Of a DNA stretch of 62,205 nucleotides, positions 922 to 47,287 are shown in pieces. Under the pieces are notes generated by a model. That model was not told the DNA's origin and made no database searches. It worked only from the letters and a program-made list of their open reading frames with translations. The DNA lies in sequence record SRR33789315_68, one strand, 5' to 3'. Made by a program: the position numbers and the translations under genes. Positions within the stretch are counted from its first letter, which is position 1. Every line of letters begins with the position of its first letter.

Positions 922-1698
922 CTACTTTACGTATGACATTGAATCGTCCCAAGTCTGGTAAGGTAGTGGAGGGACTGGCTCAAGTGTTTGCACTGTTGAG
1001 GTCGTATAGTTACCAGGTTCATGATTGGGTCTGTCTGCCTTTGGCATGCCGCCGCCAGGAGGCCCTTTAGGTTTTTCTCCGTCTGAAGCTTTAGGCGGAG
1101 CCATCATGTGTGGTACGTCACCTAGCTCAGTCCAAGGTTTGTCATAAGGTGTATTAAAGACAGTACCAACTCTAAAATGCCAAATTTTCCATTGTCCGTC
1201 GACTTGCTTGAAATCGGCGGCGTATTTGGTCCAAGCCCAACTGGCGTTTGCTGAACCGCCTCGTACACGTGAAACAGCACCGGGCGACATCCAAATGGCT
1301 TTGGCTGTTTGTCCATCGCCTGCGACTTCGACTACAGGGCTAACTAGGGTATGGTAATGCATTTCGCCTGGTCGTTCAGCAGGCGGCTTGCCATTTGGAT
1401 CGCCGAATACACGTAAAGCAGCATCAGGGCCTTCAAATATACCCGGTGGGATCTGTATTTTCAGGTCAGGATCACCATTAGCAAATAAATCGCTGGCTTT
1501 GTATTCCATCTCAGCTAGTCGATAAAACACTAGGCGCCCCATCAAATTCTCTACACTATTTCTGGCTTCAGTACGAGATTGGGCAAGGCTTAACTTTGCA
1601 TAATCGTCTGTAGACGACATTTCAGGCTGGCAGCCAGATAATAAGCCAAGTATCACGGCTGATGCAGCAAGCGATAATTTAATATTAAATTTTTTCAT
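922..1698 (-). CDS. SnoaL/NTF2-like domain lipoprotein (paralogue 1)
   Basis: Lipobox LSG-C; HYHTLVSPVVEVAGDGQTAKAIWMSPG; YAADF...WKIWH. Confidence 0.85.
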   Translation of the reverse strand: MKKFNIKLSLAASAVILGLLSGCQPEMSSTDDYAKLSLAQSRTEARNSVENLMGRLVFYRLAEMEYKASDLFANGDPDLKIQIPPGIFEGPDAALRVFGDPNGKPPAERPGEMHYHTLVSPVVEVAGDGQTAKAIWMSPGAVSRVRGGSANASWAWTKYAADFKQVDGQWKIWHFRVGTVFNTPYDKPWTELGDVPHMMAPPKASDGEKPKGPPGGGMPKADRPNHEPGNYTTSTVQTLEPVPPLPYQTWDDSMSYVK

Positions 1699-1733
1699 TG
1701 TGGTTTACCTTCTTTTTAGGATTCCTGAGCGTT

Positions 1734-2513
1734 CTATGGGATGTAAGATAATGAGTTATCCCAGGTTGCATAAGGTTTAGGCGGCGCTGGATCCAGTGTT
1801 TGTTCTGTTGTTGTGCTATAAATTGCAGGGCCTACCTGAGGAAGATCGGGTTTTAAGCTCACAGGGTCTGGCGTGAATACTGGACGGGGTGGGGCATCTT
1901 TGGGTTGTGGAGGGAAACCAATCGTATCAGAGCCCAATGGAATAAGGTAAACCGCATTAATTCTTAAATGCCAAATCTTCCATTCATTGTTTTCTTTTTT
2001 GAAATCAACCGCATATTTAACGGTTAACTCCATACCTGTGCCTTTACCGTCTTTTTCTGATGCTTCAATACCAGGAGATAGCCAGACACCTTTTGCTGTT
2101 TGACCATCACCAGCAACTTCGATGATAGGGGTGTTTAGCGGGTGTAAATGGAGGTGTCCTGCATAGCCTTTGCCCTCGTTCATTTGGTAATAATACTCAA
2201 GCATTCTGTAACCGGCATTTTTACCTACCCAAACACCTCGTGAGGTTTGAGTTTTGGTATCAGGATCTTTGGCAAATAAGTCGATGTATCTTTGATCTCT
2301 GTACATATTGGCAAAATGATAAAGGGCATAACTTCCCATCAAATTTTGAATGTCGTTGTACGCTTGAATACGTGATTGCTGAAGTAGTATTGTTGACGTT
2401 TCAGCTGACACCGGCGTTTTAGCCTGCACTGCAGTGGTGGCCGCAAATAGCGACAGCGAGCACAGCGCCGCTGTAGCGATAATACGTGGCGCTTTGTTAC
2501 TGATAAATTTCAT
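1734..2513 (-). CDS. Secreted SnoaL/NTF2-like domain protein (paralogue 2)
   Basis: Start moved to MKFISNK (GAGG RBS 9 nt upstream); Sec signal ending AVQA; HLHPLNTPIIEVAGDGQTAKGVWLSPG; WKIWH. Confidence 0.85.
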   Translation of the reverse strand: MKFISNKAPRIIATAALCSLSLFAATTAVQAKTPVSAETSTILLQQSRIQAYNDIQNLMGSYALYHFANMYRDQRYIDLFAKDPDTKTQTSRGVWVGKNAGYRMLEYYYQMNEGKGYAGHLHLHPLNTPIIEVAGDGQTAKGVWLSPGIEASEKDGKGTGMELTVKYAVDFKKENNEWKIWHLRINAVYLIPLGSDTIGFPPQPKDAPPRPVFTPDPVSLKPDLPQVGPAIYSTTTEQTLDPAPPKPYATWDNSLSYIP

Positions 2514-2848
2514 TAGCATTTTCCTCATTAAAGTATGTAAATAAAGAATTTTCTTTGAACGATTAAATAAATGGCACGTTATGTAGGACAATACATTATC
2601 TTAATTGCCCGCAATATAAGTTTATTGCTCTACAATGCGGTCATTCTGCAGTGGCATCATTGTTAATGTCAAGTAATGAAGTTGTTAATTTCTTCTCGGC
2701 GTTAAATTATTTATGTATAAAACTTATAACTATCTGCTAGGAGAATTAGAACGATTTAAATCATCACAATAAGGTCATTAGTGTGATGATTTAATTCCTA
2801 AATTATCTTAGGTTGCTGGTATTAATTTGTTGTTTATTTTAATTTAAA

Positions 2849-2870: not shown

Positions 2871-2876
2871 GCGTGA

Positions 2877-5060
2877 TTACCAATACCTAGCTTGGAACAC
2901 CAGGCCAAAGGTGCGAGGGTCATATTTGGCTGCATCGGCATCAGTGACCGTTCTTGGAGTAACGGCTGCATCAGAAAAGCCTACTACACTACCAGCGCTC
3001 ATATAATCATTATCTGCCGCGTTGCGGACATATGCTGTTACAGAATAGTTATCATCTTGAGATGTCCAAGTCATTGAAACATTCGCAATGGTTTGTGGGT
3101 CAATTTCATAATATGGCTTAGAACCGTAGGGAATTCCGTCTGGGTGCACATTACCTGACAAGTGGGCTCCTAAATACCTTGCATCCACCTTGAATATCAG
3201 ACTTGAACCGTTTGATAAGTCAACTATATGCTGGTAACTGGCCGCTGCGGTATAGTCTGGTGTATTAGGCACCTCACTGTTACCTACGACAGCAACAAAT
3301 GAGCCGGGTTGATCAACAAACCTTGCATCTAGTTTAGAGAACGAGGCCGTTAGTCTGTCGCTACTGGTTATTTGGTATATGGCATCTAATTCGAGGCCAT
3401 ACATACGGGCAGGGGAGATGAGATAAGCGAATGCAGGATTATCTAAATCGGTGTTGGCTGTTGTTTGAAAACCGTCGTAATCGTAATAGAAAAGTGCAGC
3501 GTTAACTTGCAAGCTGTTATCGAGAAAACGATTTTTACTGCCTAGTTCGTATGCGGTGACAGATTCTACGTCGTAGAATAATGCGATGGGCTGATTGTCT
3601 GCATCGGTAGTGGCTTGCACATCACCAGGTAGGAATCCTGTTGATACCATCACATAGGCTAAGCTATCTTCTGACAGTTCTTTTTCTAAGCGTAGCTTGT
3701 ATGTCACATTATTGAATGTTGAAGTGCCTTCATCCCCAGCCAAAGAAACCGTTGAGTAAACGTTGGGATTAGGTGTAAAACCAAATGGGTCGCTACCAGA
3801 GGTATATTCTAATTCACTTGCTACTTTTGTGTAGTTATAGCGTAAACCCGCAGTCAGATTCCACGTCTCATCCAAGGGCAAGGTCATTTCGCCAAACACT
3901 CCCATATCAGTGGTTTCTTTTTTACCAACATTTGAAAAAACCATAATACTATCTACAATATTGACGGATGTTTCATATTCAAAGTCGTTATGATAATACA
4001 AAGCACCTATTTGCCAACTCAAACCTGAAGCTTTGTTGGAACCTAAGTGTATTTCATGAGTAATAAAATCATCTGTAGGTATGACTTCTGCCTGTTTAAG
4101 GGTTAAACCAATAGGACCCGCAGTGAGTTCTTCGGCATTTTTATAGCGGCTACGAAAGCCTGGCAAGTAAGTTAAGGTGGCAAAATCCAGATCCCAGTTA
4201 ATTTCTGCCCAATATTGGTCGAATTCATTTTCACCGCTGACAATGACTGTGTCTGACTCAACAATCACACCAGGACTACTTTGAGTCAAATTAATACCGC
4301 CTGAGTGGGTTTTATTACGTTGAAACGCCGCTCCCACTAATACCGAAAAATCTTCGCTGGGTTTGTAAAGCAATTTGACTTTGGCGTCTTTTGATTCCTC
4401 GGCGCCACCCTGAGCAGAAACAAAACCGTCTTGACTGAAATAGTTGGCGGCGACGCGCATCGCTAAGGTGTCAGACAAGGGAGTATTAATAACTAATGTT
4501 CCATGTTGGCGGCTATAGTTACCCGCTTCTAATGTTAAATCGGCAGTAAAATCATCCAACTCGGGATTGTTGGTATAAAACGCGACAACGCCACTGGTGG
4601 CACTGCGTCCATAAAGAGTACCTTGAGGACCACGAAGCACTTCCACTCGACCAACATCATAATTACTACCAACACCACCATAGATGCCGTCTACGTAAAC
4701 TGCAGTTGTAGGTACCGTCACGTTACCTGCAGCGGATTCGTTGGGTACCGCACCACGGATAATAATATTTGCGGCCAGATTATCATTTTGAGGATCGTCG
4801 AAATACATAACATTGGGAATGTCTTCAAGAATTTGCTGTATGGTGTATTTACCTTGCTTCCTTAGTTCATCCCCATTGCGTACTTCGATAGATGCAGCGA
4901 TATCCTGAGAGCTTTGAATTCGTCTTTCAGACGAAACCATGATTACTTCAATTTCATTTTTTTCCTGTTTATCTGTATTTTCACTATCTTGAGCGTGTAC
5001 GTTTTGAGGCAGTCCTGAAACTACAAGAATAACCGTACTGAACAACATTAACTTTTTCAT
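2877..5060 (-). CDS. TonB-dependent receptor 1
   Basis: Start MKKLML with GAGG RBS; signal peptide; TonB box EVIMVSSERR; VEVLRGPQGTLYGR; aromatic C-terminus. Confidence 0.93.
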   Translation of the reverse strand: MKKLMLFSTVILVVSGLPQNVHAQDSENTDKQEKNEIEVIMVSSERRIQSSQDIAASIEVRNGDELRKQGKYTIQQILEDIPNVMYFDDPQNDNLAANIIIRGAVPNESAAGNVTVPTTAVYVDGIYGGVGSNYDVGRVEVLRGPQGTLYGRSATSGVVAFYTNNPELDDFTADLTLEAGNYSRQHGTLVINTPLSDTLAMRVAANYFSQDGFVSAQGGAEESKDAKVKLLYKPSEDFSVLVGAAFQRNKTHSGGINLTQSSPGVIVESDTVIVSGENEFDQYWAEINWDLDFATLTYLPGFRSRYKNAEELTAGPIGLTLKQAEVIPTDDFITHEIHLGSNKASGLSWQIGALYYHNDFEYETSVNIVDSIMVFSNVGKKETTDMGVFGEMTLPLDETWNLTAGLRYNYTKVASELEYTSGSDPFGFTPNPNVYSTVSLAGDEGTSTFNNVTYKLRLEKELSEDSLAYVMVSTGFLPGDVQATTDADNQPIALFYDVESVTAYELGSKNRFLDNSLQVNAALFYYDYDGFQTTANTDLDNPAFAYLISPARMYGLELDAIYQITSSDRLTASFSKLDARFVDQPGSFVAVVGNSEVPNTPDYTAAASYQHIVDLSNGSSLIFKVDARYLGAHLSGNVHPDGIPYGSKPYYEIDPQTIANVSMTWTSQDDNYSVTAYVRNAADNDYMSAGSVVGFSDAAVTPRTVTDADAAKYDPRTFGLVFQARYW

Positions 5061-5136
5061 ACATTTCCTCTGATGTTTATGGTGCATTGATTCTCAAATA
5101 TTTTGGAATTTGTCACTATCTGACTATTTATTGTCC

Positions 5137-5404: not shown

Positions 5405-6247
5405 TTATTTTTTAATAATTTCTGACTGATAGCTATTTTTAGGATTGAACGTTTTGTATGGCTCAGGAGGCGCTGGCTCATACGTTGGTTCACGTGTGAT
5501 GCGGTAGGAATCATAAGATGTTGGGATACCATCTGGCTGAGGCCCATGATTAATACCTCCCCCTTTCACAATTTCCTCAACCGAGGGCATGTTTAACGTT
5601 TGCTGAACCCAATCTTTTTTATAAGGAGCGCCAAAAAACGGGTTTTTCTTCAGATGCCAAATTTTCCAATTCCCGTCTTCTTTAACAAAATCAATGGCGG
5701 TGCGCCACCAAACCCACATAGCCTGAGGAGCAGGATCATCTTCATGGGTTTTACCTATGGCCATTAATGACACCCATACGCCGCGCGCGGTATTACCATC
5801 ATCGGCAACTTCAATGACAGGAGTACCGATTAATTCACTTTCAAACAATCCCGCATGATTACTGCCAAATTTTATATCGGGGAATAAACGTTTCATGCCT
5901 TTTGCATGAGATTCTTCAAAGTGTTTTTCCACCCCAATAAGGGTTTTACGGGCTCCTTCATAGCCTTCAAATACACCACGACCACCTATTTCAATCGTCA
6001 CACCGGGTGTTTTTTGGGCAATAAATTGCATGCGCGCTTCATACATTGCGGCTTCTTGCATATAAGCCATTTTGCTCACAATATTTTGGACAGTACGGAT
6101 ATCTTTTTCGTGTTGTAGCAATGTTGTCATACGGTCAACTTTTGCTTCTAACACCGTGTAATCTTGCGACGAATTTGACTCGGAAGTACAGGCGGGAAGA
6201 CACACTATTCCAGCTATACAGGCAACGCTTAATAATTGTTTAAACAT
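5405..6247 (-). CDS. SnoaL/NTF2-like domain lipoprotein (paralogue 3)
   Basis: Start MFKQLL with AAGGA RBS; lipobox LPA-C; coiled-coil-like N-region; TPVIEVADDGNTARGVW; WKIWH. Confidence 0.85.
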   Translation of the reverse strand: MFKQLLSVACIAGIVCLPACTSESNSSQDYTVLEAKVDRMTTLLQHEKDIRTVQNIVSKMAYMQEAAMYEARMQFIAQKTPGVTIEIGGRGVFEGYEGARKTLIGVEKHFEESHAKGMKRLFPDIKFGSNHAGLFESELIGTPVIEVADDGNTARGVWVSLMAIGKTHEDDPAPQAMWVWWRTAIDFVKEDGNWKIWHLKKNPFFGAPYKKDWVQQTLNMPSVEEIVKGGGINHGPQPDGIPTSYDSYRITREPTYEPAPPEPYKTFNPKNSYQSEIIKK

Positions 6248-6276
6248 GCATATTGTCCTTTGTAAATATTTCAATG

Positions 6277-8436
6277 TTAAAATTGTTTGCTGACACTAAC
6301 ACCGAAAATGCGTGGTGCCTGTAACATAACGCCACTGGTACCACCACCAGAAGCCACAGCAACGTTTTCTATATTTTTAATGTAGGCTGTAATCATTAGA
6401 TCCATATCTGTTTGTTCATAACGAACCGAAAAATCGCTACGGTGGTAGTTAAATTGATAGGTTCCGATTGGCTTAAATCCACTAGGATAATCAGCCAACT
6501 GTGCAGGTGAGACTGCCGCTAGTTGTTCGTGAGTAATATAATAAGAACTTGAATAGCTACTCTCTATACGGGCAGTGAGTAATGAACTCCCTCCCACCTC
6601 AAATACGTGCTCATAGGCCACCCGCGCCGTAAATTTAGGTGCATTGGGCAAAGATTTTCCAGAGTAATCAAACGATCTTTCACCATAAGGATAAACCGCC
6701 GTATAACTGAAAGAACTAAATTCTGATTCGGTAAATGTCATATAACCATCGAAACGATCATTATCAGTTGGCTGAAAAATACTCTCTAATTCCAGACCAT
6801 AGATACGTGCTTTACCAGCATTGACTGTTTGCACAGAAAATAAATTATCTTCAATGACCGGGTATTTAACTTGATAGTTACTGTAATCGTAATAAAAAGC
6901 CGATAAGTTGGCTTGGACATTGTTATCCCAAAAGCGGTTTTTACTGCCTATTTCATAAGCATTTAGATCTTCTGGTTCAAACGTAGCAGAAGGCCCCCCA
7001 ACATTACCATAAGTTTGATAACCTCCTGATTTATAGCCCGTTGAAACAGTGGCATAAAGCAAAGAGGTAGATGATAAATCCATCTCCATACCTAATTTGT
7101 AATCTAATGATTCAAAAGTTCTTGAAGTAGAGGGGGAAGGTTGTATATCGCTAGGATCGCTTAAGCTTGTCCAAACGTCCTCTTTAGACTTTTTATCCGA
7201 GGAATAACGTAAGCCGCCCGTTAAACGCATGTCGTCAGAAACACTCCAAGTTGTTTGACCAAACAGGCCAATTGAAGTCAATGGTTGCCGTTGATCATCC
7301 CAATAGCCTGTACCTCCAATTCCATCAGGAGACACGCGAGTGTATTCATTGTCCAAATATACAGCGCCAATTAACCAGCTTACCGACGTATCATTATCAG
7401 ATGCTATCCGCGCTTCAAGTGCTTTTTGTGTGGTTTCTTCAATTTGATGCACATCATTTGTATCATCATCACGTTTAGTATTAAGGTAAGACGGAATAAC
7501 GGTAATAACCGTATCTGCGACACTCCAATCTAACTGAGCATTGATATTGGTAAATTTGTGATCTATGGAACCGTCAATTAAGGTAGGGTCTGTCCATGGA
7601 TCATTTAAGTCATCACGATCGGTCCCAACATCAGGCAACGCATATGTTGCACTACCGTGACCGTTTTCAGCCAAATGTTCGGCCTTAACAATCAGACGCA
7701 TATCATCATTTGGCTCAAATAATACTTTAATACGACCACCAAATTGGTCAGCATCATTTTGTCCTGTAGGCTCAGCATAGCCATCATGTTTATTAGTAAA
7801 ACCAGCAAAACGTACTGCGGCATTTTCAAAAGGAACGTTGAGCATCGCATCAAAACGTTTAGCGCCATAATTGCCAATATTTAACTTTAGTGAACCAAAG
7901 GTATAGCCAAGGTCTGGGTCATTGGTTAATAAATTCAAACTTCCGGCCGTCGCATTGCGTCCGTACAAGGTACCTTGAGGCCCACGCAAGACTTCCACTC
8001 GTGCGATGTCGAACATGCCAATGGTAATGATGCCAGGGTCAGACTGATATACGCCATCGACATTAAAATTAATTGACGGATCGCCAAAACCAGTATCGTT
8101 GGAACCGATACCTCGAATAAAAACGCCCGCACCGCCAGATGTTTCCTGAATGTTGACATTAGGCATAGATAATATAACTTCATCTAACGAGGTTTTCTCT
8201 CTAGCTTCTAAATCCGCACCACTTTGTGCGGTAATCGCTATAGCTGTTTTCTGGATGGTTTTAATGCGGTGTTCTGCGGTCACCATGATGGTTTCTATGC
8301 CTTCATTTTCCTTGGCTTTTACGGGCCCATTTTGTAGTAAAGTGGCCTGTTCATCCTGTTGTTGTGCTAGAGCATTACCAAAAACACTGATACCAAGTAA
8401 AAAACTTAGGGTGGTTGAATAAACTTTTTTTTGCAT
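6277..8436 (-). CDS. TonB-dependent receptor 2
   Basis: Start MQKKVY; ETIMVTAEHR; VEVLRGPQGTLYGRNATAG; C-terminal F. Confidence 0.93.
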   Translation of the reverse strand: MQKKVYSTTLSFLLGISVFGNALAQQQDEQATLLQNGPVKAKENEGIETIMVTAEHRIKTIQKTAIAITAQSGADLEAREKTSLDEVILSMPNVNIQETSGGAGVFIRGIGSNDTGFGDPSINFNVDGVYQSDPGIITIGMFDIARVEVLRGPQGTLYGRNATAGSLNLLTNDPDLGYTFGSLKLNIGNYGAKRFDAMLNVPFENAAVRFAGFTNKHDGYAEPTGQNDADQFGGRIKVLFEPNDDMRLIVKAEHLAENGHGSATYALPDVGTDRDDLNDPWTDPTLIDGSIDHKFTNINAQLDWSVADTVITVIPSYLNTKRDDDTNDVHQIEETTQKALEARIASDNDTSVSWLIGAVYLDNEYTRVSPDGIGGTGYWDDQRQPLTSIGLFGQTTWSVSDDMRLTGGLRYSSDKKSKEDVWTSLSDPSDIQPSPSTSRTFESLDYKLGMEMDLSSTSLLYATVSTGYKSGGYQTYGNVGGPSATFEPEDLNAYEIGSKNRFWDNNVQANLSAFYYDYSNYQVKYPVIEDNLFSVQTVNAGKARIYGLELESIFQPTDNDRFDGYMTFTESEFSSFSYTAVYPYGERSFDYSGKSLPNAPKFTARVAYEHVFEVGGSSLLTARIESSYSSSYYITHEQLAAVSPAQLADYPSGFKPIGTYQFNYHRSDFSVRYEQTDMDLMITAYIKNIENVAVASGGGTSGVMLQAPRIFGVSVSKQF

Positions 8437-8899
8437 GTCGTCTTTACCTTTAAAATATTTATACTGAATGGCGTAATTCAATACTCAATTGTCTTACATC
8501 GTTAAACTTTGACGAGTTTATGTAAATTGAACTCCGCAGGCCCGCATTGTGGGTCTGTACATTCAATATGTGGACAAAATAACATTAACATACCAATAAC
8601 TTCAAGTTAAAAAGTTAAATACAAAGATTGCATGCCGTTAATTTAATTAACATTGTCAATTGATATTGAGTGATTAATTTACATTTTGTCGCGCGATGGG
8701 AGCATAGTTTGTAAAGAAACGTATTTTATTTTTAATAAATGGGTCGTGAATTTATCCATTTATTAGTCAGACATAGCGAAGAAATTGGTATTCGATTACG
8801 ACTGAAGCATGGATATGTCAAAGTTGATTTAACAATTTGAAAATAAAGTGAGCATAAATTTGTGACTTAGTGCATTTTAAAAAGCGCATTAAACTGATT

Positions 8900-9188: not shown

Positions 9189-9992
9189 TTAACGCACACA
9201 AGACATTGAGCTATCCCACGTTGCATAAGGCAGTGGCGGCGCTGGATTCAGTGTTTGTTTGGTTGACGTGGTGTACATGTCTCGGCCTGAGCTAGGTCTG
9301 TTGGGTTGTAAGTGTGGTTCTTTGGGAAGTTTGCTTGGCGCCCACATAGTTTCTAATGGTTTGATCCAGGATTGTTCATACGGCGTTAGAAAAATACCGT
9401 AGGTGCACAGCTGCCAGATCTTCCACTCATTTTCTATTTTCTTAAAAGCCGCGGAATATTTAACCCAAATCCACATACCGTAGGGCTCGGCGTTTTTAGG
9501 GTTACCTGATTCAAGCCCTGGCGATAGCCATACCGCTCGAGCTGTTTGCCCGTCTCCTGCAACTTCAATAACAGGACTTGTTAATGTATGTAGATGCATA
9601 TCACCGCGATAATCAGCCCCTCCGGCGTTCACAGCCATTTTATAGTAGTATGTCAAGACTCTTTCTGCGGCATCTGGACCTTCCCATACACCAGTAGACA
9701 TATCGATCTTCATATCTGGGTCGCCATTGGCAAATAGTCCAACATAATCTTTATCCATGTACATATTCGCAAAATGATAAAAAACATATCTGCCCATAAC
9801 ATTTTCTATTGCATTGACGGCGAGGATGCGTTTTTGTTGAAGTTTTATCTCCTTTAGTTCATCGCTTACCGTTGGACTGATTGCCTGGCTCATTGTGCTA
9901 AGCAAAAGGTTCACTGAGACCAATGCACTCACTGCAACTAACCTCAGTTGTTTTTTGACGTTTTGATGCTTGTATCTTTCACTGCTACTCAT
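9189..9992 (-). CDS. Secreted SnoaL/NTF2-like domain protein (paralogue 4)
   Basis: Signal peptide ending SQA; HLHTLTSPVIEVAGDGQTARAVWLSPG; WKIWQ; PPLPYATWD tail. Confidence 0.85.
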   Translation of the reverse strand: MSSSERYKHQNVKKQLRLVAVSALVSVNLLLSTMSQAISPTVSDELKEIKLQQKRILAVNAIENVMGRYVFYHFANMYMDKDYVGLFANGDPDMKIDMSTGVWEGPDAAERVLTYYYKMAVNAGGADYRGDMHLHTLTSPVIEVAGDGQTARAVWLSPGLESGNPKNAEPYGMWIWVKYSAAFKKIENEWKIWQLCTYGIFLTPYEQSWIKPLETMWAPSKLPKEPHLQPNRPSSGRDMYTTSTKQTLNPAPPLPYATWDSSMSCVR

Positions 9993-32379: not shown

Positions 32380-32610
32380 GTCAGATCCTCTGAGTCCTAA
32401 AGTAACATTGCATACTGTAATGGCATGTTCACCAACTGGATTTCGATTAAACAGTACCACAACAAATTTGTTGCCTTGGTTAGCTGATATCGATACACCA
32501 ACAGCCTCACACCTTTACCTTTTAATTTTTATTGTTGCTAGACCAACAGAATGTTTACACCCTAGCTACATATCATGAGCAATATAAACAGAGGCCTTAA
32601 TCAAACTGAA

Positions 32611-38931: not shown

Positions 38932-39726
38932 TTAGTTGCCATCACTAATGGTCGTGCCGCCATCAATAATAATGCTCTACCAGGTAATAAAACCACCCTC
39001 TCTTGATGCCAACATCAATATGACTCCGGCGACTTCTTCTGGCTCTCCTATTCGACGTAAGGGGGTTAAATTTGTGCGTTTTTCTAACAATTCAGCATTA
39101 TTTATCAAGGGGCTGGCAAAACGGGTACGAATCACTCCGGGGGAAATAGCATTTACTTGTATGTTATCAGGCCCCCATTCTGCGGCTAAATTTCTGGCTA
39201 GCTGAGCAACGCCCGCTTTTGTCATGCCATAGAGCCCAAGGCTTTTATTTCCTCGCACGCTGGATAAACTGGCAGTAAAAATAACGACCCCCTCCCTTCT
39301 ACTCGCCATAGCAAGGATAACCAAAGAGCTTAACCAATGTGGACTTTGCAAATTTATCCGATGAGTTCGCTCCTAGGTTTCATCACTTATTTCTGTTAGT
39401 GAACAGGGCGGCGGCGCGCCCCCTGCATTACAGATCAAAATGTCAATTTTACCTAGGTGCCCTAGCGCATCGTGATAAAGTTGTTCAACTTGTGATTTTA
39501 CACCTACATCATAGGTTAATCCGTAGACATCAATACCTAAACTCTTGAGCTCTTGAACTGTGCTTTGAGTCTCATTTTTGTCAATACCGCAAATAATCAC
39601 CTTGGCACCCGCCTGTCCCAACGTTTTGGCCATGGCTAAACCCATGCCCGCCGTAGCGCCAGTTAATAGCGCGCACTTATCCGTTAAGTTAAATAGCTCA
39701 GTCATTGAATAATGTGATGAATTCAT
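38932..39726 (-). pseudogene. SDR pseudogene with two in-frame TAG stops
   Basis: One continuous frame: TGATAGMG...SDET*ERTHRINLQS...YGMTK...FITW*SIIIDGGTTISDGN; stops at 39373-39375 and 38977-38979. Confidence 0.88.
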
Positions 39727-39895: not shown

Positions 39896-41023
39896 TTAAA
39901 TTGGGGCAAGTAAACCGGCCATCGATAAAGCCATTATTTGTACATGTTCTTCTTTTGCGCCACCGGTCATTTCTATTTCACCTAATCGAAGTGAGTTTGC
40001 CACAATCATACGACAGCGTTCCCAGCGACGATTTTGAAAACGTTCAAAAATGTCTTTAATCTCACCACCGGCCGCAACCTCTTCACTTAATACCACGGCA
40101 TCTTCGTGTCCCATACCTGCGCCAGAAGCAAGGTGAGGCGTGGTTGCATGTACCGCGTCACCAATGAGTAATACCCGACTGTTATACCAAGGGCGAGGCA
40201 TAATCATGCCTTCAAGAGGTCGATACAAAATTTGACTTTTTTCGTTAAGACTGGCTTTGACCTTTTCGGCAATAGGGGCGGTAAACGAGCGCAATAAATT
40301 TAAAAAATAAGTCAGTTCGTCTTCTTTAGCAATGCGTTCTTTATTGGGACGTAATTCCGTATAATTTACATACATTTCATCCGCTGAAACTGGAGTGAAA
40401 CCCATTTTTCCGCTTGCTCCAAAATATAAGGAAGCACGTTCTAATCCAAAACGAGGCACCACTGCTCTCCACACTCCTTGTCCGGTATATTGCGGCTCAG
40501 GGGCACCAGGAAAAACGGTGGCTCTTACTTTAGAAAACAAGCCATCCGCAGCAACTACCACATCATAGTCTTCACTTTTACCGTTTGTCATGGTGACAGT
40601 GACTTTATCAACGCCTTCATTAATATCGGTGAAAGTGTGACCAAGGATAACGTTAACACCAGCTTCTTTGGTTTTCTCACCTAGGATTTTAGCTAGCACA
40701 GGTCGCATAATACCGCCCCCCCCGACTACGCTTGAGTCAAAGACCGCAGGAGTGGAAATTTGCTTGATAAAGGTGCCGTCTGCGGTAAACATATCCACAC
40801 CTACAGTGATTGCACCATGTTGCTTAAATTCGTCTAATAAACCTATTTTTTCAATTGCTCGTAATGAAGGCCCGCTAACCGTAATACCTGCACCATCGGT
40901 GCGCCAGTTTTTATCTATTTCTAAAACCGTGACATCCAGTCCTTGACGTTGCAGCAAGATAGCTGCCGACATACCTGAAAAACCACCGCCAACAACTAAT
41001 ACTTTTTGAATAGACTGTGTCAT
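39896..41023 (-). CDS. FAD-dependent aromatic monooxygenase (FdeE-like)
   Basis: GGGFSG; AADG; LIGDAVHATTPHLASGAGMGHEDA; gene order VOC-Rieske-monooxygenase as in fdeCDE. Confidence 0.9.
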   Translation of the reverse strand: MTQSIQKVLVVGGGFSGMSAAILLQRQGLDVTVLEIDKNWRTDGAGITVSGPSLRAIEKIGLLDEFKQHGAITVGVDMFTADGTFIKQISTPAVFDSSVVGGGGIMRPVLAKILGEKTKEAGVNVILGHTFTDINEGVDKVTVTMTNGKSEDYDVVVAADGLFSKVRATVFPGAPEPQYTGQGVWRAVVPRFGLERASLYFGASGKMGFTPVSADEMYVNYTELRPNKERIAKEDELTYFLNLLRSFTAPIAEKVKASLNEKSQILYRPLEGMIMPRPWYNSRVLLIGDAVHATTPHLASGAGMGHEDAVVLSEEVAAGGEIKDIFERFQNRRWERCRMIVANSLRLGEIEMTGGAKEEHVQIMALSMAGLLAPI

Positions 41024-41379
41024 AAATCTCGCTCGTTTGTTGATTCCATATATAGCGTTCCGTCGGCGTCACAATTTACTTTGACTGGCGTTAGAGACTG
41101 TCCAATACAAGGCCCCCTAACACACTGCCCAGATGCTATGTCAAATAGTGCGCCATGGGAGCCGCACTGGATAAATTCGCCGTTACCACTTAAAAAATGA
41201 TGTTGCCGCCATGCCATACTGGCCTGCTCATATCCCTGATGGGGACAAGAGTTTTTATAGGCGTAAAGTGTGTCTGGTTGCCGGACTACAAAAATACTGT
41301 GTTTGCCTATCGCTTGAGGGTCGAAACCTCGGGACTGTCCAAGTGTAATATCGTTGATATGTCCTAGTTGTATTTTCAT
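41020..41379 (-). CDS. Rieske [2Fe-2S] ferredoxin (FdeD-like)
   Basis: CPH and CGSHG ligands; start at MKIQLG; 4-nt overlap with the monooxygenase. Confidence 0.88.
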   Translation of the reverse strand: MKIQLGHINDITLGQSRGFDPQAIGKHSIFVVRQPDTLYAYKNSCPHQGYEQASMAWRQHHFLSGNGEFIQCGSHGALFDIASGQCVRGPCIGQSLTPVKVNCDADGTLYMESTNERDL

Positions 41380-41384
41380 TGGGT

Positions 41385-42314
41385 TTAGTGAGGGCCCCCG
41401 CCAGGCTGCCAATTATCTACAAGGGTAAAATTGAATAACTGTGAGGTATCTTCTGCCGCATCACAGGCTCTTGGCGTCCAGCTGTCATCATGTAAGTCCA
41501 TATCAGCGTCATATTCAACATGGGCGCCTAATGGGCTGTTGAAATACCAAAACCAATTAGAGCCAAAGATATGGCGTCCCGGCCCCCAAAAAGACTCATA
41601 GCCTTTTTGTACAAATTGTCGTCCAATTTGCATGAGTTCAGTGGGGCCACCCACATGAAAGGTAAAGTGCTCGACGCCCAACATATGAGGAGGCGTTTCG
41701 ATAAAGAATAAGGTGTGATGTTCCAAGGTACCGGCTGGGCGCATAAATGGCCCTAGATTGCTAAAGCGGTCAACGGTGATAAAACCCAAACGTTCATAAA
41801 ACGTTTCAGTTCTAGCTCTATCCGGCACAAAATAAACGACATGTGACAAACTACGCGGAATAATATTAGGTTCTACCACTGCACCAACACAATTTACCGC
41901 ACGTTGTGCATCGCCTGGCGCATTGACTTTTTCTGCTGGCAAAGTTAATGGTTGGCGCACGGTTAATTGAAAGCCCAGCACAAAACCATTGGGATCGGTG
42001 ACTTCTAATGAGCCATCATCTAATAGGGTCACTTCACGGTCTTTGCTCATTTCTTGTTTAATCAGTTGCAAAGTGTCTGTGTCAGCCACACCATAAACGG
42101 TTTTGCGTAACATGCTGTCGGTCGGTAGGGGCTTAGGCAGGCTGGCGTCATCGCGAGCTTTAATGACCACTGAACTTCCATCTTGGCCTTTAAATTCACC
42201 ACCATTTTTATCCACATTGTAAGGGATAAGTCCGTAATCCGTCATGTATTGACAACACTTAGCGACATCATCAACACCAAAAACCAAGCTATCTAAGCCA
42301 ACTATATTCATCAT
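41385..42314 (-). CDS. VOC-family extradiol-type dioxygenase (FdeC-like)
   Basis: SLSHVV, HHTLF, EHFTFH, WGPGRHIFGSNWFWYF...VEYDAD. Confidence 0.88.
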   Translation of the reverse strand: MMNIVGLDSLVFGVDDVAKCCQYMTDYGLIPYNVDKNGGEFKGQDGSSVVIKARDDASLPKPLPTDSMLRKTVYGVADTDTLQLIKQEMSKDREVTLLDDGSLEVTDPNGFVLGFQLTVRQPLTLPAEKVNAPGDAQRAVNCVGAVVEPNIIPRSLSHVVYFVPDRARTETFYERLGFITVDRFSNLGPFMRPAGTLEHHTLFFIETPPHMLGVEHFTFHVGGPTELMQIGRQFVQKGYESFWGPGRHIFGSNWFWYFNSPLGAHVEYDADMDLHDDSWTPRACDAAEDTSQLFNFTLVDNWQPGGGPH

Positions 42315-43086: not shown

Positions 43087-44172
43087 TTAGTAACTAAAGG
43101 TGTCGTCAAAAGTGTAATAAGGTTCGGGAAACTTAGGATAAATGATCGACGGTCTTTCTGGACTGTAAGCAGGATACGAATATTCTGGTTTACTGAATCC
43201 AGGGGGCATTTCGCCGTCACGCTCTCCGGCTTCCGCCATGCCTACCTTGTCAAAATCTAACCACTTATCGTCTAAGGATGGAGTGAAATCGTAAGCCATT
43301 TGTAAATGCCAAATTTTCCATTGGCCATCTTCTAAGACAAAATCACCACCGTATTTCTCCCAAAAGAAAGTACCACGTACGCCGACTTTGCCATTTTCGA
43401 TATTGGTCATCAGTCCCATGCCAGGTGAATACCAAATACCTTTGGCCGTTTTACCATCACCAGCAATTTCAATAACTGGCGTAGTATTTGTGTGCATGGC
43501 CCATTCATGGCCCGCGCCTAAGTTTTCTGAGATGTTTTTGACCCCTGGGTTGATATCACTTAGCGCTTTTAAGGCCTTTTCACGGCTATCTTGGTTGTGT
43601 GCACCATAAGCGCCTTTAATAATTGAAATGCCATTCATAACCCACGCAGGGCTGGCAAAAGTAGCTGATTTACCATGGGCACCATTTTCATCTACCCACA
43701 ATGCTTCGACCTCCTGCATGTTGAGTCCAGCGGCGTGGTAGTAAGCATGTTTACTCATGGTATTTTGTACCTGCCACATGGCTAATGCCGCCTCCGCCGC
43801 AGAAATACGCGGGCGTTTATCCTCTGTTACTGGCATTGTCGCTGCCATTTGTTTGTCAAACTGCTTAAATTCTGACAGCGTTAGTTTGCCATCACCATTG
43901 ATATCAATACCTTGGGGGGCAGGACTACTGTCATAATCATTTTGCGTAACAAAACCCCTGCCTTTTTCAAACATGTTAAAGGACGATATCGGCGCTCCGG
44001 CTTGTTGCCATTCCCATCGGGTCATTTTTCCGTTGTTGTCTAAATCGACCGCTTGTACAACAGGCGTGAAGTCGGGGTTGTTAAGAGCTTTTGTATCATT
44101 GGCTGCATTCACCGCGCACGCGCCGGTTAACAAGGTCAGTGATATCGCAATTGACAGTTTTTTCAGATTCAT
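43087..44172 (-). CDS. Secreted EF-hand plus SnoaL/NTF2-like fusion protein (paralogue 5)
   Basis: Signal peptide; EF-hand-like loops DLDNNGKMTRWE and DINGDGKLTLSE; MHTNTTPVIEIAGDGKTAKGIWYSPG; WKIWH. Confidence 0.85.
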   Translation of the reverse strand: MNLKKLSIAISLTLLTGACAVNAANDTKALNNPDFTPVVQAVDLDNNGKMTRWEWQQAGAPISSFNMFEKGRGFVTQNDYDSSPAPQGIDINGDGKLTLSEFKQFDKQMAATMPVTEDKRPRISAAEAALAMWQVQNTMSKHAYYHAAGLNMQEVEALWVDENGAHGKSATFASPAWVMNGISIIKGAYGAHNQDSREKALKALSDINPGVKNISENLGAGHEWAMHTNTTPVIEIAGDGKTAKGIWYSPGMGLMTNIENGKVGVRGTFFWEKYGGDFVLEDGQWKIWHLQMAYDFTPSLDDKWLDFDKVGMAEAGERDGEMPPGFSKPEYSYPAYSPERPSIIYPKFPEPYYTFDDTFSY

Positions 44173-44223: not shown

Positions 44224-45081
44224 TTATTGTGTTGCGCTGTCGCTTATGCAGTCAGCGTATTCAAAGGTGTGACTCAATGTGTCATAGGGTTCGGGTAGCT
44301 TGGGCGAAAGCCGCGCTTGGCGAGTGGGGCTATATTCTTGATAAAGACGTTTGGCTATGGTGGGGCCGGGTACTTCAATACCTTCAGCGCCAGGGCCGGG
44401 TGATTGTTTTTCTGCTCCCTCTGTTCCCATCGCAGCGACTGCTGAGTATTGAACAGGTAGGGCTTCTCCAAAAGGAGCCGCCCAATCCGTGGACACTTGT
44501 ATGTGTAAAAAGCGCCATTGGCCTTGTTCTTTAACCAGATCAACATGATATTTTTCCCACATGTTTATACCTTGTGACGTTAATCCATCCACACTGGATA
44601 AGATGACGCCAGGGGTATACCAAAATGCCTTAGCCGTTTGACCATCACCAGCGACTTCAATTAATGGTGTAGTCCGTAGGTGGTAGACATTGTTTCCAAT
44701 GTAACGATTTTTATTGAAGTCATTTTTAATCGCTGGATTGGCGGCACTCATGGCCGCTAACTGCGCTTTTTGCATCGCGTAGTTGACGGTGACGTAGTAA
44801 TTTTCAATCGCTTCACGGCCAATCCAACAGCCTTGGTTTTGTGCCCAACGAATTTCACTGTCTGTGGACCATAAGGCTAACTCCTGTTCATTGCGGCCAA
44901 TGGAGTGAAACATCGCGCGGCGAGCCATCAAGTTTTCGATTTCTTGGCGATCAGTGGCAAGTGTTAGTTGTTTTTTTAAGCTCTGTATTTCATCTTGCTT
45001 CGCGTTGAGCAAGTTAGGCTGGCAAGCCGTTAATAAACCCATAAGGCTGATATACAGTGCGGCTAGAGTGAAGAATTTCAT
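44224..45081 (-). CDS. SnoaL/NTF2-like domain lipoprotein (paralogue 6)
   Basis: Lipobox LTA-C; YHLRTTPLIEVAGDGQTAKAFWYTPG; WRFLH. Confidence 0.85.
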   Translation of the reverse strand: MKFFTLAALYISLMGLLTACQPNLLNAKQDEIQSLKKQLTLATDRQEIENLMARRAMFHSIGRNEQELALWSTDSEIRWAQNQGCWIGREAIENYYVTVNYAMQKAQLAAMSAANPAIKNDFNKNRYIGNNVYHLRTTPLIEVAGDGQTAKAFWYTPGVILSSVDGLTSQGINMWEKYHVDLVKEQGQWRFLHIQVSTDWAAPFGEALPVQYSAVAAMGTEGAEKQSPGPGAEGIEVPGPTIAKRLYQEYSPTRQARLSPKLPEPYDTLSHTFEYADCISDSATQ

Positions 45082-45091
45082 GATTTACTTC

Positions 45092-47287
45092 CTAAAATGG
45101 GTAGTTAACATTGAGCCCAAACGTGAAGGGTTCATTGACAAAACGGCGATATACGGGATAGACATAAGCGGTTTGTGCATCGTTTTCGAGGTTCTTTAAC
45201 CACAAGCCTGCCGACCAACCGTCATTGGCGACATAACGCAGAGTGGCGTCAGTTCGGGTATAACTGTCTTGCCAAGCGCCGGGTAAGTAATATTCGGTGG
45301 TGGTAAAATAGCCCTCTGAATATTTGCTATTAATGCTGGCTATTAGCTCGCCATCATCTAACTCCCAACTGTGTTCGTAACCCAGCATTAAAGCCCATTC
45401 AGGTGAGTTGGCCATTTGTCGTCCTTTTAATTGATAAGGACCGCCATCTGCAAATGGATTGAGTGGTAATTCAGCAGCGCCGTATTCGGTGTGCAAATAG
45501 GTTAATGAGCCGGTCAAGCGACCTGCCGAACTGACTGCCCACTCTACTGTTGCTTCTGCTCCTTGAATTTGGCTGTTACCCGCATTACTGATTAACTGAA
45601 AGTTAGAATAAGACCCAGTACTGCCTGCTGCCATCGAGGTTAATGATTGCAATTGATAGTTTTTATAGTCGTAGAAAAAAATGGCGCTGTTGAGTTGTAA
45701 AGTCCCACCGAGTAAACGATTTTTAAGGCCAACTTCGTAGCTGGTGAGTTTTTCAGGATCGTATTTTTGTACGGGTACGGTTTGCGATACACCACCTTGT
45801 TTAAAGCCGGTAGCAACATGGACATATAACAAGCTGTTTTGCGCCAAATCGTATTCTAGGCCTGCTTTCCAGGTAATTGATTCAGCGACGTTTTTGTCAT
45901 AGCCTTCTTCAAATAAACTGCCTTCGGGGCTAAATAATTCATAATTAGATTCGCGAGAATCCTTGCTCCAACGTAGCCCTGTAGTGACGCGAAACATATC
46001 GTTAATGGGATAAGTTGATTGCGCAAAAACGGCGGTGGTTGTACTTGGTGCAAAACCCTGATTAAGTATATAGGTGCCATCGTCTAGATCTATTTCTTGG
46101 CCGTCGCCGCCTAAATCACCTTGGCTATTCAAATAATACAAACCGATAATCCAATCCCACGAACTATCGACCGACGATGTGAAGCGGGTTTCTAGGGATT
46201 TATAGGTCGCATTGCCAGTACCTTCGGTATAATCATCGGTACAGCCGCAACTTAGATCGGGATCTAAAATACCAAATAAGTGGCTGGTTTTTTCCATATT
46301 TTCTTGCTTTGAATACGCAGGTAATAGAGTCAGATCGCCCCAGCCAAAGTTGATATCCAACTGTAAGGACAAGGTTTCAGCTTTACGTTCAGATACGCCG
46401 GGTAAATGCTGTGCATCATTTTCCCATGCATCGCTGTTGTCAGCTGTTACCCAGCCAGACTCAGTCACAGAGCCCAAAAAAGGTGGGAAGACAAGGTTAC
46501 CGGCACTGTTTGGTACAGGTACGGTGTTCATTCCATGACCGCTGGATGCGCTTACCTCATATTTTGCTAATAAGGTGGCATTATCTGCGGGTAGAAATAA
46601 TAACTTGGCGCGCAGGCCCCAAGAGTCGTCGTCCATGGAGCCATCACTAATATAGCCGTCACGATCAGATTTAAAGCCGGAAACTCGCAGCGCTAAATCT
46701 TCGTTAGGGGCGACGTTTAGTGCCCCTTCAGTGCGCACTAAACCATAATTGCCGAGTTGTAATCTGACATAGCCTTCGGTTTCATCTAACAAAGGGTTTT
46801 GGGTAATGATATTGACTGAGCCACCTGATGCGTTACGCCCATACAAGGTGCCTTGCGGGCCTCGTAATACTTCCATGCGGGCCAAATCAAAGGCGCCGCT
46901 TTGCACTGACTCCGTTCGCCCGGTATAGATACCATCTATCAAGGTTGCAACTGCCGGATCAGCAAATCCTGGATCTACAGATGAGCCTACGCCGCGAATG
47001 AAAATTTGCGCGCCTTGGGCTAGTCCCTGTACCTCTACCCCCGTAACTCCTTTCAGTACTTGATCAAATGAAGTATTACCGGATTTACTTATTGCTTCAG
47101 CTGATATTGAAGTGACCGCAATGGCGGTTTTGTTAATATTTTGAACACGTTTTTGTGCTGTGACTTCTATTATTTCTAATTCTGCGGTGTCATTGTGTTG
47201 TGATACTTCCTGCGCGTATGCGCCGCCACCAAACAGACCTAAAGAAATGGCGAACGCTATTTTTGTTGTTGTGAATGTGTTACCCAT
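45092..47287 (-). CDS. TonB-dependent receptor 6
   Basis: Start MGNTF; EIIEVTAQKR; MEVLRGPQGTLYGRNASGG; C-terminal YPF. Confidence 0.93.
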   Translation of the reverse strand: MGNTFTTTKIAFAISLGLFGGGAYAQEVSQHNDTAELEIIEVTAQKRVQNINKTAIAVTSISAEAISKSGNTSFDQVLKGVTGVEVQGLAQGAQIFIRGVGSSVDPGFADPAVATLIDGIYTGRTESVQSGAFDLARMEVLRGPQGTLYGRNASGGSVNIITQNPLLDETEGYVRLQLGNYGLVRTEGALNVAPNEDLALRVSGFKSDRDGYISDGSMDDDSWGLRAKLLFLPADNATLLAKYEVSASSGHGMNTVPVPNSAGNLVFPPFLGSVTESGWVTADNSDAWENDAQHLPGVSERKAETLSLQLDINFGWGDLTLLPAYSKQENMEKTSHLFGILDPDLSCGCTDDYTEGTGNATYKSLETRFTSSVDSSWDWIIGLYYLNSQGDLGGDGQEIDLDDGTYILNQGFAPSTTTAVFAQSTYPINDMFRVTTGLRWSKDSRESNYELFSPEGSLFEEGYDKNVAESITWKAGLEYDLAQNSLLYVHVATGFKQGGVSQTVPVQKYDPEKLTSYEVGLKNRLLGGTLQLNSAIFFYDYKNYQLQSLTSMAAGSTGSYSNFQLISNAGNSQIQGAEATVEWAVSSAGRLTGSLTYLHTEYGAAELPLNPFADGGPYQLKGRQMANSPEWALMLGYEHSWELDDGELIASINSKYSEGYFTTTEYYLPGAWQDSYTRTDATLRYVANDGWSAGLWLKNLENDAQTAYVYPVYRRFVNEPFTFGLNVNYPF

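Follow-up and report, generated by a model that had tools for sequence, protein, structure and literature searches.

The DNA considered here, SRR33789315_68 (hereafter the window), is one whole contig of 62,205 bp with ~42% G+C, and it carries six paralogous SnoaL-like proteins with signal-like N-termini in the neighbourhood of genes for TonB-dependent receptors (TBDRs). Its malic enzyme is 91% identical to that of an Alteromonadaceae metagenome-assembled genome (MAG) and ~81–82% identical to those of Psychrosphaera, Colwellia and Thalassotalea; because of these identities, the source is treated as an uncultured marine Alteromonadales-like gammaproteobacterium. By Pfam, the window contains six TBDRs with Plug and barrel domains among ~50 genes, along with two MFS (major facilitator superfamily) transporters, two LacI regulators, LysR and AraC regulators and many catabolic enzymes. 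Other aromatic-catabolism genes encode a fumarylacetoacetase, VanA/VanB, an extradiol-dioxygenase-like protein, a flavin adenine dinucleotide (FAD) monooxygenase, cupins and a BD-FAE esterase, all with cytoplasmic-looking N-termini. An initial annotation, made from the letters of the sequence, had read the SnoaL-like proteins as partners of the TBDRs in a locus for the use of polyphenols, and the phenolic theme agrees with the gene context both in the window and around relatives, which fits phenolic or aryl-glycoside catabolism.

Six SnoaL_4 paralogues and their receptors

All six genes lie on the minus strand where the initial annotation had placed them, and all six products match Pfam SnoaL_4 (PF13577) at 34.9–46.8 bits against a gathering cut-off of 24 (E 1e-8 to 3.7e-12); none of the six matches an NCBIfam model. 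The paralogues are 26–44% identical to SnoaL-1 and have 19 invariant columns, and their alignment bore out the motifs that had been read from them: TP[VI]IE[VI]A[GD]DGxTA[KR], W[KR][IF][WL][HQ] and a C-terminal P.PY.T[WFL] tail. Coordinates are collected in Table 1.

Five of the six follow a co-oriented TBDR, again as first described. TBDR1 is followed by SnoaL-2 and then SnoaL-1, all on the minus strand. TBDR2 and SnoaL-3 are separated by 2 nt, or by 29 nt if counted from the ATG. The third unit runs from TBDR6 across 10 nt to SnoaL-6, across 51 nt to SnoaL-5 and on to a small PepSY_TM gene, with terminator-like sites found only after the latter. The exception, SnoaL-4, ends an MFS–fumarylacetoacetase operon ~700 bp upstream of TBDR2. 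That six members of a family of ~1800 clusters should all stand beside TBDRs within 62 kb is not chance.

Export was assessed by inspecting N-termini by eye, together with a Kyte-Doolittle heuristic. In each paralogue an n-region precedes a hydrophobic h-region, and hydropathy over 11 residues peaks at 2.0–2.7, in agreement with the proposal that all six bear export signals. The proposed division into three lipoproteins and three Sec-type proteins was roughly right: the lipoboxes of SnoaL-1 and SnoaL-6 are canonical, and SnoaL-2 (AVQA-K) and SnoaL-4 (SQA-I) look Sec-type when read from internal ATG starts, while the remaining two lipoboxes are ambiguous. That of SnoaL-3 is non-canonical, with Pro at −2, and SnoaL-5, in which LLTGAC is followed by AVNA-AN, could be a lipoprotein or Sec-cleaved. 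Among the non-barrel, non-integral-membrane open reading frames (ORFs) of the window, inspection found only seven signal-like N-termini, namely those of the six SnoaL proteins and of a 596-aa β-helix protein.

SnoaL-5 also contains an EF-hand insertion at residues ~40–105 that is unique in comparison with its closest relatives. A separate EF-hand protein adjoins a Steroidobacteraceae family member (L018 4876-5544), and one homologue of the β-helix protein (P0295) has an EF-hand Pfam match; these three occurrences may reflect a link to calcium.

Table 1. Positions of the SnoaL_4 genes, receptors and accompanying features (in the window unless a locus is named)
Feature	Position	Strand	Remarks
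SnoaL-1	922..1698	-	Canonical lipobox LSGC; His97 and Tyr147 equivalents present, Tyr35 equivalent absent
SnoaL-2	1734..2591	-	Sec-type; equivalents of Tyr35, His97 and Tyr147; likely start is internal MRKMLMKF
TBDR1	2877..5087	-	Plug and barrel; followed by terminator-like hairpin 2870-2849
SnoaL-3	5405..6274	-	Non-canonical lipobox LPAC; His97 equivalent is Glu, Tyr147 equivalent is Thr
TBDR2	6277..8481	-	Plug and barrel; 2 nt upstream of SnoaL-3
SnoaL-4	9189..9992	-	Sec-type; last gene of MFS–fumarylacetoacetase unit
Fumarylacetoacetase	10276-11583	-	Pfam; upstream of SnoaL-4
MFS transporter	11596-12894	-	Pfam; upstream of SnoaL-4, same unit as fumarylacetoacetase
TBDR3	17643..19967	+	Within cyclase/SDR/3HCDH/BD-FAE esterase/cupin/CoA-transferase/AMP-ligase block
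Secreted 596-aa right-handed β-helix protein	25583..27373	-	Downstream of TBDR4; signal peptide
TBDR4	27499..29643	-	Upstream of 596-aa β-helix gene
TBDR5	30067..32460	-	Pfam
FAD monooxygenase, Rieske protein, extradiol-dioxygenase-like protein	39896..42314	-	Downstream of TBDR6 unit; all cytoplasmic-looking
PepSY_TM small membrane protein, 129 aa	42637..43026	-	Closes TBDR6 unit; terminator-like sites after it, 42609-42566
SnoaL-5	43087..44172	-	LLTGAC/AVNA; N-terminal EF-hand insertion; equivalents of His97, Glu143 and Tyr147
SnoaL-6	44224..45081	-	Lipoprotein (LTAC); 10 nt downstream of TBDR6
TBDR6	45092..47311	-	Plug and barrel
LacI-family regulator	47634..48674	-	Heads TBDR6 module
GMC oxidase/TIM-barrel/Gfo/Idh/MocA neighbourhoods	L064 1011-6798; L075 3-8320; L141 2860-10351		

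Relation to LdpA and other NTF2-fold enzymes

A profile of the six paralogues found four distinct sequences in the PDB, three of them LdpA, a diarylpropane lyase that acts as erythro-DGPD γ-formaldehyde lyase (8abv, 8abt and 8abu, with E 4.3e-12, 3.3e-10 and 2e-9); BaiE was matched at E 0.21 only. From an alignment of 127 sequences, AlphaFold2 modelled SnoaL-1 with a mean pLDDT (predicted local distance difference test) of 87.9; the model shows three helices and a curved sheet, the α+β cone fold. Foldseek searches with this model returned 255 PDB matches at E≤0.001, with NTF2-like proteins among the matches listed; LdpA chains came top (E 2.7e-11, probability 1.0, TM 0.53–0.58 on the query), followed by LinA, a scytalone-dehydratase-like protein and BaiE (E 1e-7 to 1e-5). 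The mention of LdpA in the initial annotation was thus apt, LdpA being the closest solved structure both by profile (E 4e-12) and by fold (E 3e-11). As judged by sequence and fold, the nearest characterised relatives of this uncharacterised family are the lignin-dimer deformylating lyases LdpA and PcfL.

BaiE, LinA and scytalone dehydratase are cytoplasmic, cofactor-free dehydratases and dehydrohalogenases of the NTF2 fold. They have the fold and a His/Tyr-type acid–base logic in common with the window proteins, and differ from them in being ~150–170 aa long, in lacking the C-terminal tail and, in the case of BaiE, in the marginal sequence match noted above. The likeness to LdpA and PcfL of Novosphingobium and Sphingobium (8abt, 8abu, 8abv and 8abw) goes further: it takes in the NTF2/SnoaL_4 fold, the VA.DGQTAKG and W-K-I motifs, the His97 and Tyr147 positions and a long C-terminal extension, which in LdpA is the arm that holds the trimer together. 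The differences are a sequence identity of ~20%, the signal peptides of the window proteins, and features of the window family's own, namely a His at the Ile39-equivalent position, His174 and the P.PPEPY.TF tail.

The published account of LdpA describes a cofactor-free NTF2 enzyme that forms a homotrimer through an extended C-terminal arm, in which Tyr35, Asp40, His97, Glu143 and Tyr147 are essential and which has a Glu-Tyr-Gln triad termed exclusive to LdpA by its authors (PMC9942872); PcfL, according to a 2026 review, is an LdpA homologue that deformylates a β-5 dimer (PMC12997858). We mapped the LdpA residues through HMMER alignments onto an alignment of 127 family representatives. Apart from SnoaL-3, which has Glu there, the window proteins carry His at the position of His97 (five of six), as do 98 of the 127 representatives; Tyr occupies that of Tyr147 in five of six and in 96/127. 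The equivalent of Tyr35 is Tyr in two window proteins, otherwise L, M, H or R, and Tyr in 67 representatives. Glu143 has an equivalent Glu in SnoaL-5 and SnoaL-6 only (31/127 overall). The family has near-invariant positions of its own: Asn51, Asp128, Lys171, His174 and, in the tail, Tyr247 (121 of 127 representatives). In broad type, these proteins probably share the chemistry of LdpA, with His/Tyr acid–base catalysis on an enol or phenol.

The family elsewhere, its link to receptors and its gene context

Among 1.84 billion cluster representatives (50% identity clusters), HMMER recovered 1835 proteins at E≤1e-3, of which 1062 reach ≤1e-10 and 308 reach ≤1e-30. A word-based search gave 34 proteins, named just ‘hypothetical’ or ‘SnoaL-like domain’. 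The closest non-self relatives of the window proteins come from metagenomes and are 57–63% identical. Genomic context was taken from the best 79 of 351 loci encoding a relative in species-representative genomes, and from 80 of 155 confirmed metagenome loci. The 79 genome loci span Oscillospiraceae, Lachnospiraceae, Streptomyces, Microbacteriaceae, Dehalococcoidia, a Bathyarchaeia MAG, Desulfobacteraceae, Hymenobacter, Steroidobacteraceae, Novosphingobium, Sphingobium and Nitrospirillum. Monoderm, Chloroflexota and archaeal members begin at the first helix of the domain, without a signal peptide, and occur as tandem arrays of two to six paralogues with the tail P.PPEPY.TF.ETFSY. The initial annotation regarded related NTF2-fold proteins as normally cytoplasmic; this holds for the monoderm members and fails for exported clades in several phyla, of which the window is an extreme case and not a unique one. 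Members of 400–650 aa (P0036, P0037, P0046, P0122 and P0143) carry two or three copies of the domain in one polypeptide, which is consistent with an assembly of several NTF2 units.

To relate export to receptors, family ORFs were called in the window and 159 loci with a hidden Markov model (HMM) of the family, and export was judged by the hydropathy of the stretch ahead of the domain; three proteins that fell marginally below the cut-off despite evident signal peptides were re-flagged by hand. TBDR-type genes were found with an iterated HMM and with phmmer, for which two CarboxypepD_reg-type barrels identified by Pfam were the queries, and ‘directly flanked’ disregards intervening family paralogues. 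The survey yielded 279 family ORFs, 56 of them predicted to be exported. Outside the window, a TBDR-type gene directly flanks 13 of 50 exported members, in 12 cases with the same orientation, and lies within 6 kb of 22, compared with 1 and 2 of 223 non-exported members. Counted by locus, 11 of the 38 loci with an exported member outside the window are TBDR-flanked and 18 have such a gene within 6 kb, against 1 of 121 loci without exported members; the adjacency seen in the window therefore extends to exported homologues elsewhere. Part of this contrast is trivial, since monoderms lack TBDRs; many of the loci are, moreover, short contigs, and the loci were selected by similarity. By our rough estimate, 11 of 38 is several-fold above expectation for a gene class of a few per cent.

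TBDR-linked loci belong to Alphaproteobacteria (L063, L020), Steroidobacteraceae (L022, L037) and metagenomes (L143, L154), and CarboxypepD_reg-type barrels stand beside the family on five further metagenome contigs (L131, L137, L138, L145, L156). The best matches of TBDR6 are the family-adjacent TBDRs of L037, L154 and L063 (34–36% identity), while those of SnoaL-6 are the TBDR-adjacent lipoproteins of L154 (41%) and L037 (37%). SnoaL-5 is best matched by the second NTF2 gene of L063 (51%), and TBDR4 by the second TBDR of that locus (37%), which likewise precedes a homologue of the 596-aa protein. In L063, from Nitrospirillum iridis, LacI-TBDR-NTF2-NTF2 and LacI-TBDR-β-helix modules lie side by side, and L154 repeats the LacI-TBDR-NTF2 lipoprotein order of the TBDR6 module. 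By these matches, the TBDR-NTF2 modules of the window, L037, L063 and L154 look orthologous. The same pattern is found across several phyla, and in the window it is unusually concentrated.

A FastTree phylogeny of 268 members, read by leaf order, places the six window proteins in four separate positions, with SnoaL-1, -2 and -4 together and SnoaL-3, -5 and -6 each apart. Exported members cluster together, and different subtypes co-occur within loci; because different subtypes are found within one locus, they could form hetero-oligomers or carry out successive steps, either of which would fit. The LdpA-type residues are retained at least as well in exported as in non-exported members: His at the His97 position in 48 of 55 compared with 150 of 213, Tyr at that of Tyr147 in 48/55 and 153/213, Glu at that of Glu143 in 31/55 and 55/213, and His174 in 53/55 and 173/213. 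SnoaL-3, whose subfamily is 50–57% identical across phyla, may be a non-catalytic subunit or a user of other residues, going by its sequence.

The β-helix protein encoded downstream of TBDR4 recurs with the family. It matches nothing in Pfam or NCBIfam and has at least 300 homologues, named ‘hypothetical’ or ‘right-handed parallel beta-helix repeat-containing protein’, among them proteins of Dyella, Pseudoxanthomonas, Steroidobacteraceae, Asticcacaulis, Nitrospirillum and Novosphingobium. Its family is present in the window and in 7 of the 79 best related loci, including L063 (11935-12675) and L005 (4489-6336). The AlphaFold2 model (pLDDT 91.0) is closest to autotransporter passengers (Z 28–29), followed by AlgE4, NosD, tailspikes, polygalacturonases and alginate lyases (Z 17–21); Foldseek and a structure search pointed to the generic right-handed β-helix fold and to no specific enzyme family. 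Because the two families co-occur across phyla, we suspect that the β-helix protein and the NTF2 proteins act on the same substrate class.

Neighbouring families were defined by clustering all ORFs of the best 79 loci and the window. In this set, ABC-transporter ATPases lie near the family in 17 loci and branched-chain-type permeases in 9; OYE + Pyr_redox_2 ene-reductases in 12; SBP_bac_8/DUF3502-type binding proteins of ~575 aa in 11; UGSC-family proteins in 9; LysR regulators in 7; and FAD_binding_2 flavoproteins in at least 6. Individual loci add further enzymes. A Dehalococcoidaceae member (L001) neighbours a DAPG/phloretin-hydrolase domain, and in Hymenobacter (L021) a PCMH/VAO-like FAD_binding_4 protein lies between two family members. 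Three exported members alternate with three FAD_binding_2 flavoproteins carrying long N-terminal extensions in L157 (199-10115), an anaerobe-type contig that may encode a periplasmic redox and NTF2 system. In Microbacterium trichothecenolyticum, Pseudolysinimonas and a metagenome contig (Table 1), the family member stands amid a GMC oxidase, xylose-isomerase-like TIM barrels and Gfo/Idh/MocA dehydrogenases, a set that we take to resemble the C-glycoside 3-oxidase/C-deglycosidase clusters of such bacteria. Taken together, the neighbours of relatives suggest, short of proof, an enzyme whose substrates are phenolics of plant type or glycosides of these.

A set of genes in the window itself (50045-56075, minus strand), encoding a glyoxalase/extradiol-type protein, an S9-like hydrolase, an SDR, a histidinol-dehydrogenase-like protein and an FAH-family hydrolase, recurs in the Hymenobacter MAG (L021 6641-11972) beside two exported family members and a TBDR; by its gene content this set is a conserved pathway. 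TBDR3 and TBDR5 are 72% identical over 774 residues. Since other pairs of window TBDRs are ~30% identical, this value indicates a recent duplication inside the island. The palindrome GTTAAT-N3/4-ATTAAC occurs twice in the window (8637-8651 and 33648-33663; expected 0.09), one copy ~155 bp upstream of TBDR2 and the other immediately upstream of the LysR gene, and is a candidate operator tying this regulator to the TBDR2–SnoaL-3 unit; beyond AT-rich words and this one pair, a search of the window's intergenic regions for common operator motifs found nothing.

Three genes of the window are split. An IS630-type transposase (24125-25196, plus strand), between the AMP-ligase block and the β-helix gene, consists of an HTH ORF (24125-24634) and a DDE_3 ORF (24645-25196). 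A short-chain dehydrogenase (38977-39726, minus strand) is divided into an N-terminal half (39373-39726) and a C-terminal half (38977-39351), and is probably a disrupted gene. The vanillate O-demethylase oxygenase (58989-60047, minus strand) is represented by two ORFs 3 nt apart, Rieske (59664-60047) and VanA_C (58989-59660), followed by a VanB-like reductase and AraC; the pair is either stop-interrupted or a split form.

PepSY_TM proteins are partners of siderophore TBDRs, and the Pfam match of the small protein that closes the TBDR6 unit covers just the C-terminal portion of PepSY_TM. Siderophore or iron uptake, suggested by this protein, by the EF-hand and by ECF/FecR genes near L018, was considered and rejected: the regulators are of the LacI, LysR and AraC types, and the cut-offs for siderophore receptors are reached by none of the TBDRs. 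More generally, no window TBDR comes near any NCBIfam equivalog cut-off, which makes a siderophore, heme or B12 assignment impossible.

Proposed function and comparison with known systems

We propose, and would give it about an even chance of being correct, that the six proteins are periplasmic or outer-membrane-anchored cofactor-free enzymes that process phenolics imported by the TBDRs. The proposal starts from the fold, the family relationship, the export-signal-like N-termini, the conservation of residues and the recurrent TBDR linkage, all of which are observed; from these we infer the enzymatic activity of the six proteins, their periplasmic location and oligomeric state, the order of steps and the substrate class, for which flavonoids, phlorotannins and lignin dimers had been suggested.

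In such a scheme, a TBDR would import a bulky phenolic too large for porins, for example a polyphenol, lignan, lignin oligomer or aryl glycoside. The NTF2 proteins, some lipid-anchored and some soluble, would carry out a lyase, dehydratase or isomerase step with the conserved His and Tyr, possibly as LdpA-like trimers formed through the conserved C-terminal P.PY.TF tail. The neighbouring MFS transporters would then carry the smaller products over the inner membrane, for degradation by the island's cytoplasmic oxygenases, hydrolases and CoA-dependent enzymes (fumarylacetoacetase, VanA/VanB, extradiol-dioxygenase-like protein, FAD monooxygenase and cupins), with LacI and LysR regulators controlling the modules. 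Cofactor-free chemistry suits the periplasm, which has no ATP or NAD(P)H. Conservation of the catalytic-type residues, which is no poorer in exported than in non-exported members, favours a catalytic role in the envelope.

Several observations weigh against this proposal. The export of the six proteins is deduced from a hydropathy heuristic rather than from SignalP. Asp40, which in LdpA forms a dyad with His97, is replaced by L, F, E, F, A and S in the six and is never Asp in the 127 representatives, and equivalents of Tyr165 and Gln170 of the triad are absent from all six and not conserved in the family. Because the catalytic Asp and the Glu-Tyr-Gln triad are missing, we regard the six proteins as relatives of LdpA by sequence and not as its orthologues; with the dyad Asp and the triad Tyr165 and Gln170 absent, their chemistry may also differ from that of LdpA, and deformylation cannot be assumed. 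Some copies in the window may be non-catalytic, since SnoaL-3 has neither the His nor the Tyr and SnoaL-1 lacks the Tyr35 equivalent. Between TBDR1 and SnoaL-2 lie a terminator-like hairpin with a 9-bp stem (2870-2849) and a promoter-like site matching at 10 of 12 positions (2672-2643), because of which the SnoaL-2/SnoaL-1 pair may be transcribed partly independently of TBDR1. Elsewhere, 27 of the 38 exported loci outside the window have no adjacent TBDR, though many of them are short contigs. Finally, the LacI regulators, the sugar-type binding proteins of Firmicutes, the co-occurrence of the β-helix protein and the Gfo/Idh/MocA and TIM-barrel neighbours would agree better with a substrate of carbohydrate type than with a purely aromatic one. 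A complex prediction of TBDR2 (40-734) with SnoaL-3 (30-289), made without supplied alignments or controls, scored 0.00 and carries weight neither way.

The most serious alternatives are two, and we consider each of them unlikely. In the first, the proteins are non-catalytic partners that capture or shuttle a hydrophobic or phenolic ligand, either at the surface, in the SusD-like role that the initial annotation had offered, or between the TBDR and the inner membrane in the manner of MlaC, an NTF2-like periplasmic carrier. The lipoboxes lack Asp at +2, which by the Lol rule would place the lipoproteins in the outer membrane; SnoaL-3, the copy without His97 and Tyr147 equivalents, is translationally close to its receptor, and the paralogues vary at pocket positions. 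The fold would also allow it, since many binding proteins are described within the NTF2 fold (PMC3924330). Catalytic-type His and Tyr are nevertheless kept in five of the six window proteins and in 48 of 55 exported members, and signal-less relatives sit in enzyme operons. A SusD-like role fares worst: the fold is unrelated to SusD, and the window TBDRs are not SusC-type, scoring 32–36 bits against a cut-off of 368 for TIGR04056 where they match at all. An acidic run after the Cys is the surface-export signal of Bacteroidota, and the Hymenobacter lipoprotein L021|6001 has none. MlaC was absent from the Foldseek matches listed for the SnoaL-1 model, from a search that included no comparison aimed at MlaC.

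The second alternative, which we likewise judge improbable, keeps the proteins as envelope enzymes and gives them a non-polyphenol substrate, such as a glycoside- or oligosaccharide-derived compound, a steroid or a terpenoid, with the nearby aromatic genes belonging to separate pathways. LacI regulators head the modules, and the β-helix fold is typical of polysaccharide lyases, hydrolases and epimerases, as the matches to AlgE4, polygalacturonases and alginate lyases illustrate; its top matches are autotransporter passengers, however, and say nothing specific about an enzyme. The SBP_bac_8/DUF3502 binding proteins in the Firmicutes loci, and the one clade with Gfo/Idh/MocA and xylose-isomerase-like genes, point the same way, but the 52 window ORFs scanned yielded no Pfam domain of a glycoside hydrolase or polysaccharide lyase. 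For a steroid, it can be said that BaiE-type dehydratases belong to the same Pfam family and that the OYE + Pyr_redox_2 and FAD_binding_2 neighbours presumably resemble enzymes of bile-acid operons. Against this stand the marginal match of BaiE to the family profile (E 0.21) and the activity of LdpA and PcfL, the sole close relatives to have been characterised, whose substrates are phenolic lignin dimers.

That the NTF2 genes are ordinary periplasmic enzymes in a TBDR-rich catabolic island, adjacent to receptors through gene density and co-regulation with no functional coupling, we think very improbable: six TBDRs in ~50 genes make adjacency easy to obtain, the sites between TBDR1 and SnoaL-2, the separate operon of SnoaL-4 and the many exported loci with no TBDR beside them would agree with it, but gaps of 2 and 10 nt bind SnoaL-3 and SnoaL-6 to their receptors, an alphaproteobacterium and a metagenome contig repeat the LacI-TBDR-NTF2 order, with TBDR and NTF2 genes that are mutual best matches of those in the window, Acidobacteria-type CarboxypepD_reg barrels lie next to family members in L131, L137, L145, L156 and L138, and the TBDR-flanked share of exported loci exceeds our rough expectation.

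Beyond the catalytic reading of the six proteins, we put forward more tentatively, and with less than even confidence, that a multi-phylum module exists in which a TBDR works with outer-membrane-anchored, hetero-oligomeric, cofactor-free NTF2 lyases, joined in some loci by the β-helix protein, to depolymerise or deglycosylate plant and algal polyphenols in the periplasm. Such a module would be a true ‘polyphenol utilisation locus’, following the logic of polysaccharide utilisation loci (PULs) with unrelated parts.

How Gram-negative bacteria take up and begin to degrade large phenolics (lignin oligomers, lignans, tannins, phlorotannins and flavonoid glycosides) is poorly known; DdvT is so far the one TBDR to have been characterised, along with a few cytoplasmic enzymes that cleave dimers. 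If exported LdpA-like enzymes do cooperate with TBDRs, they would represent a first envelope step of polyphenol turnover in marine and soil carbon cycling, provide a function for ~1800 sequence clusters now annotated merely as ‘SnoaL-like’ or ‘hypothetical’, and offer new cofactor-free catalysts for the valorisation of lignin and polyphenols. The tandem paralogue arrays of gut Firmicutes point to a related activity in the metabolism of dietary polyphenols or xenobiotics.

The SusC/SusD PULs of Bacteroidota and the TBDR-centred carbohydrate utilisation (CUT) loci of Xanthomonas and Caulobacter combine an importer, an exported partner, an inner-membrane transporter, catabolic enzymes and a LacI-type regulator, and the window has the same ingredients. 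It departs from SusC/SusD systems in that its partner has an NTF2 fold instead of the all-helical, TPR-like fold of SusD and looks catalytic, and in that its TBDRs are not SusC-type. The window follows the logic of CUT loci, a TBDR with a transporter, degradative enzymes and a regulator, and domains of carbohydrate-active enzymes were not found there. In Sphingobium sp. SYK-6, DdvT is reported to be the TBDR for DDVA, a biphenyl derived from lignin (Fujita 2019). It lies near the genes for the catabolism of such aromatics and is a precedent for their import by a TBDR. We know of no exported NTF2 partner described for DdvT. Our searches of open-access full texts turned up no account of exported TBDR partners with an NTF2 fold, or of the wider family with its conserved tail and tandem arrays. 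The initial annotation knew of no described PUL-like architecture for aromatics, and this stands in part: TBDR-linked aromatic uptake was already known from DdvT, and the novelty, as far as those texts show, lies in the exported NTF2 partner. TBDR-centred catabolic loci and LdpA-type enzymes are each known; the element that the window adds to them is an exported partner of the TBDRs with an NTF2 fold.

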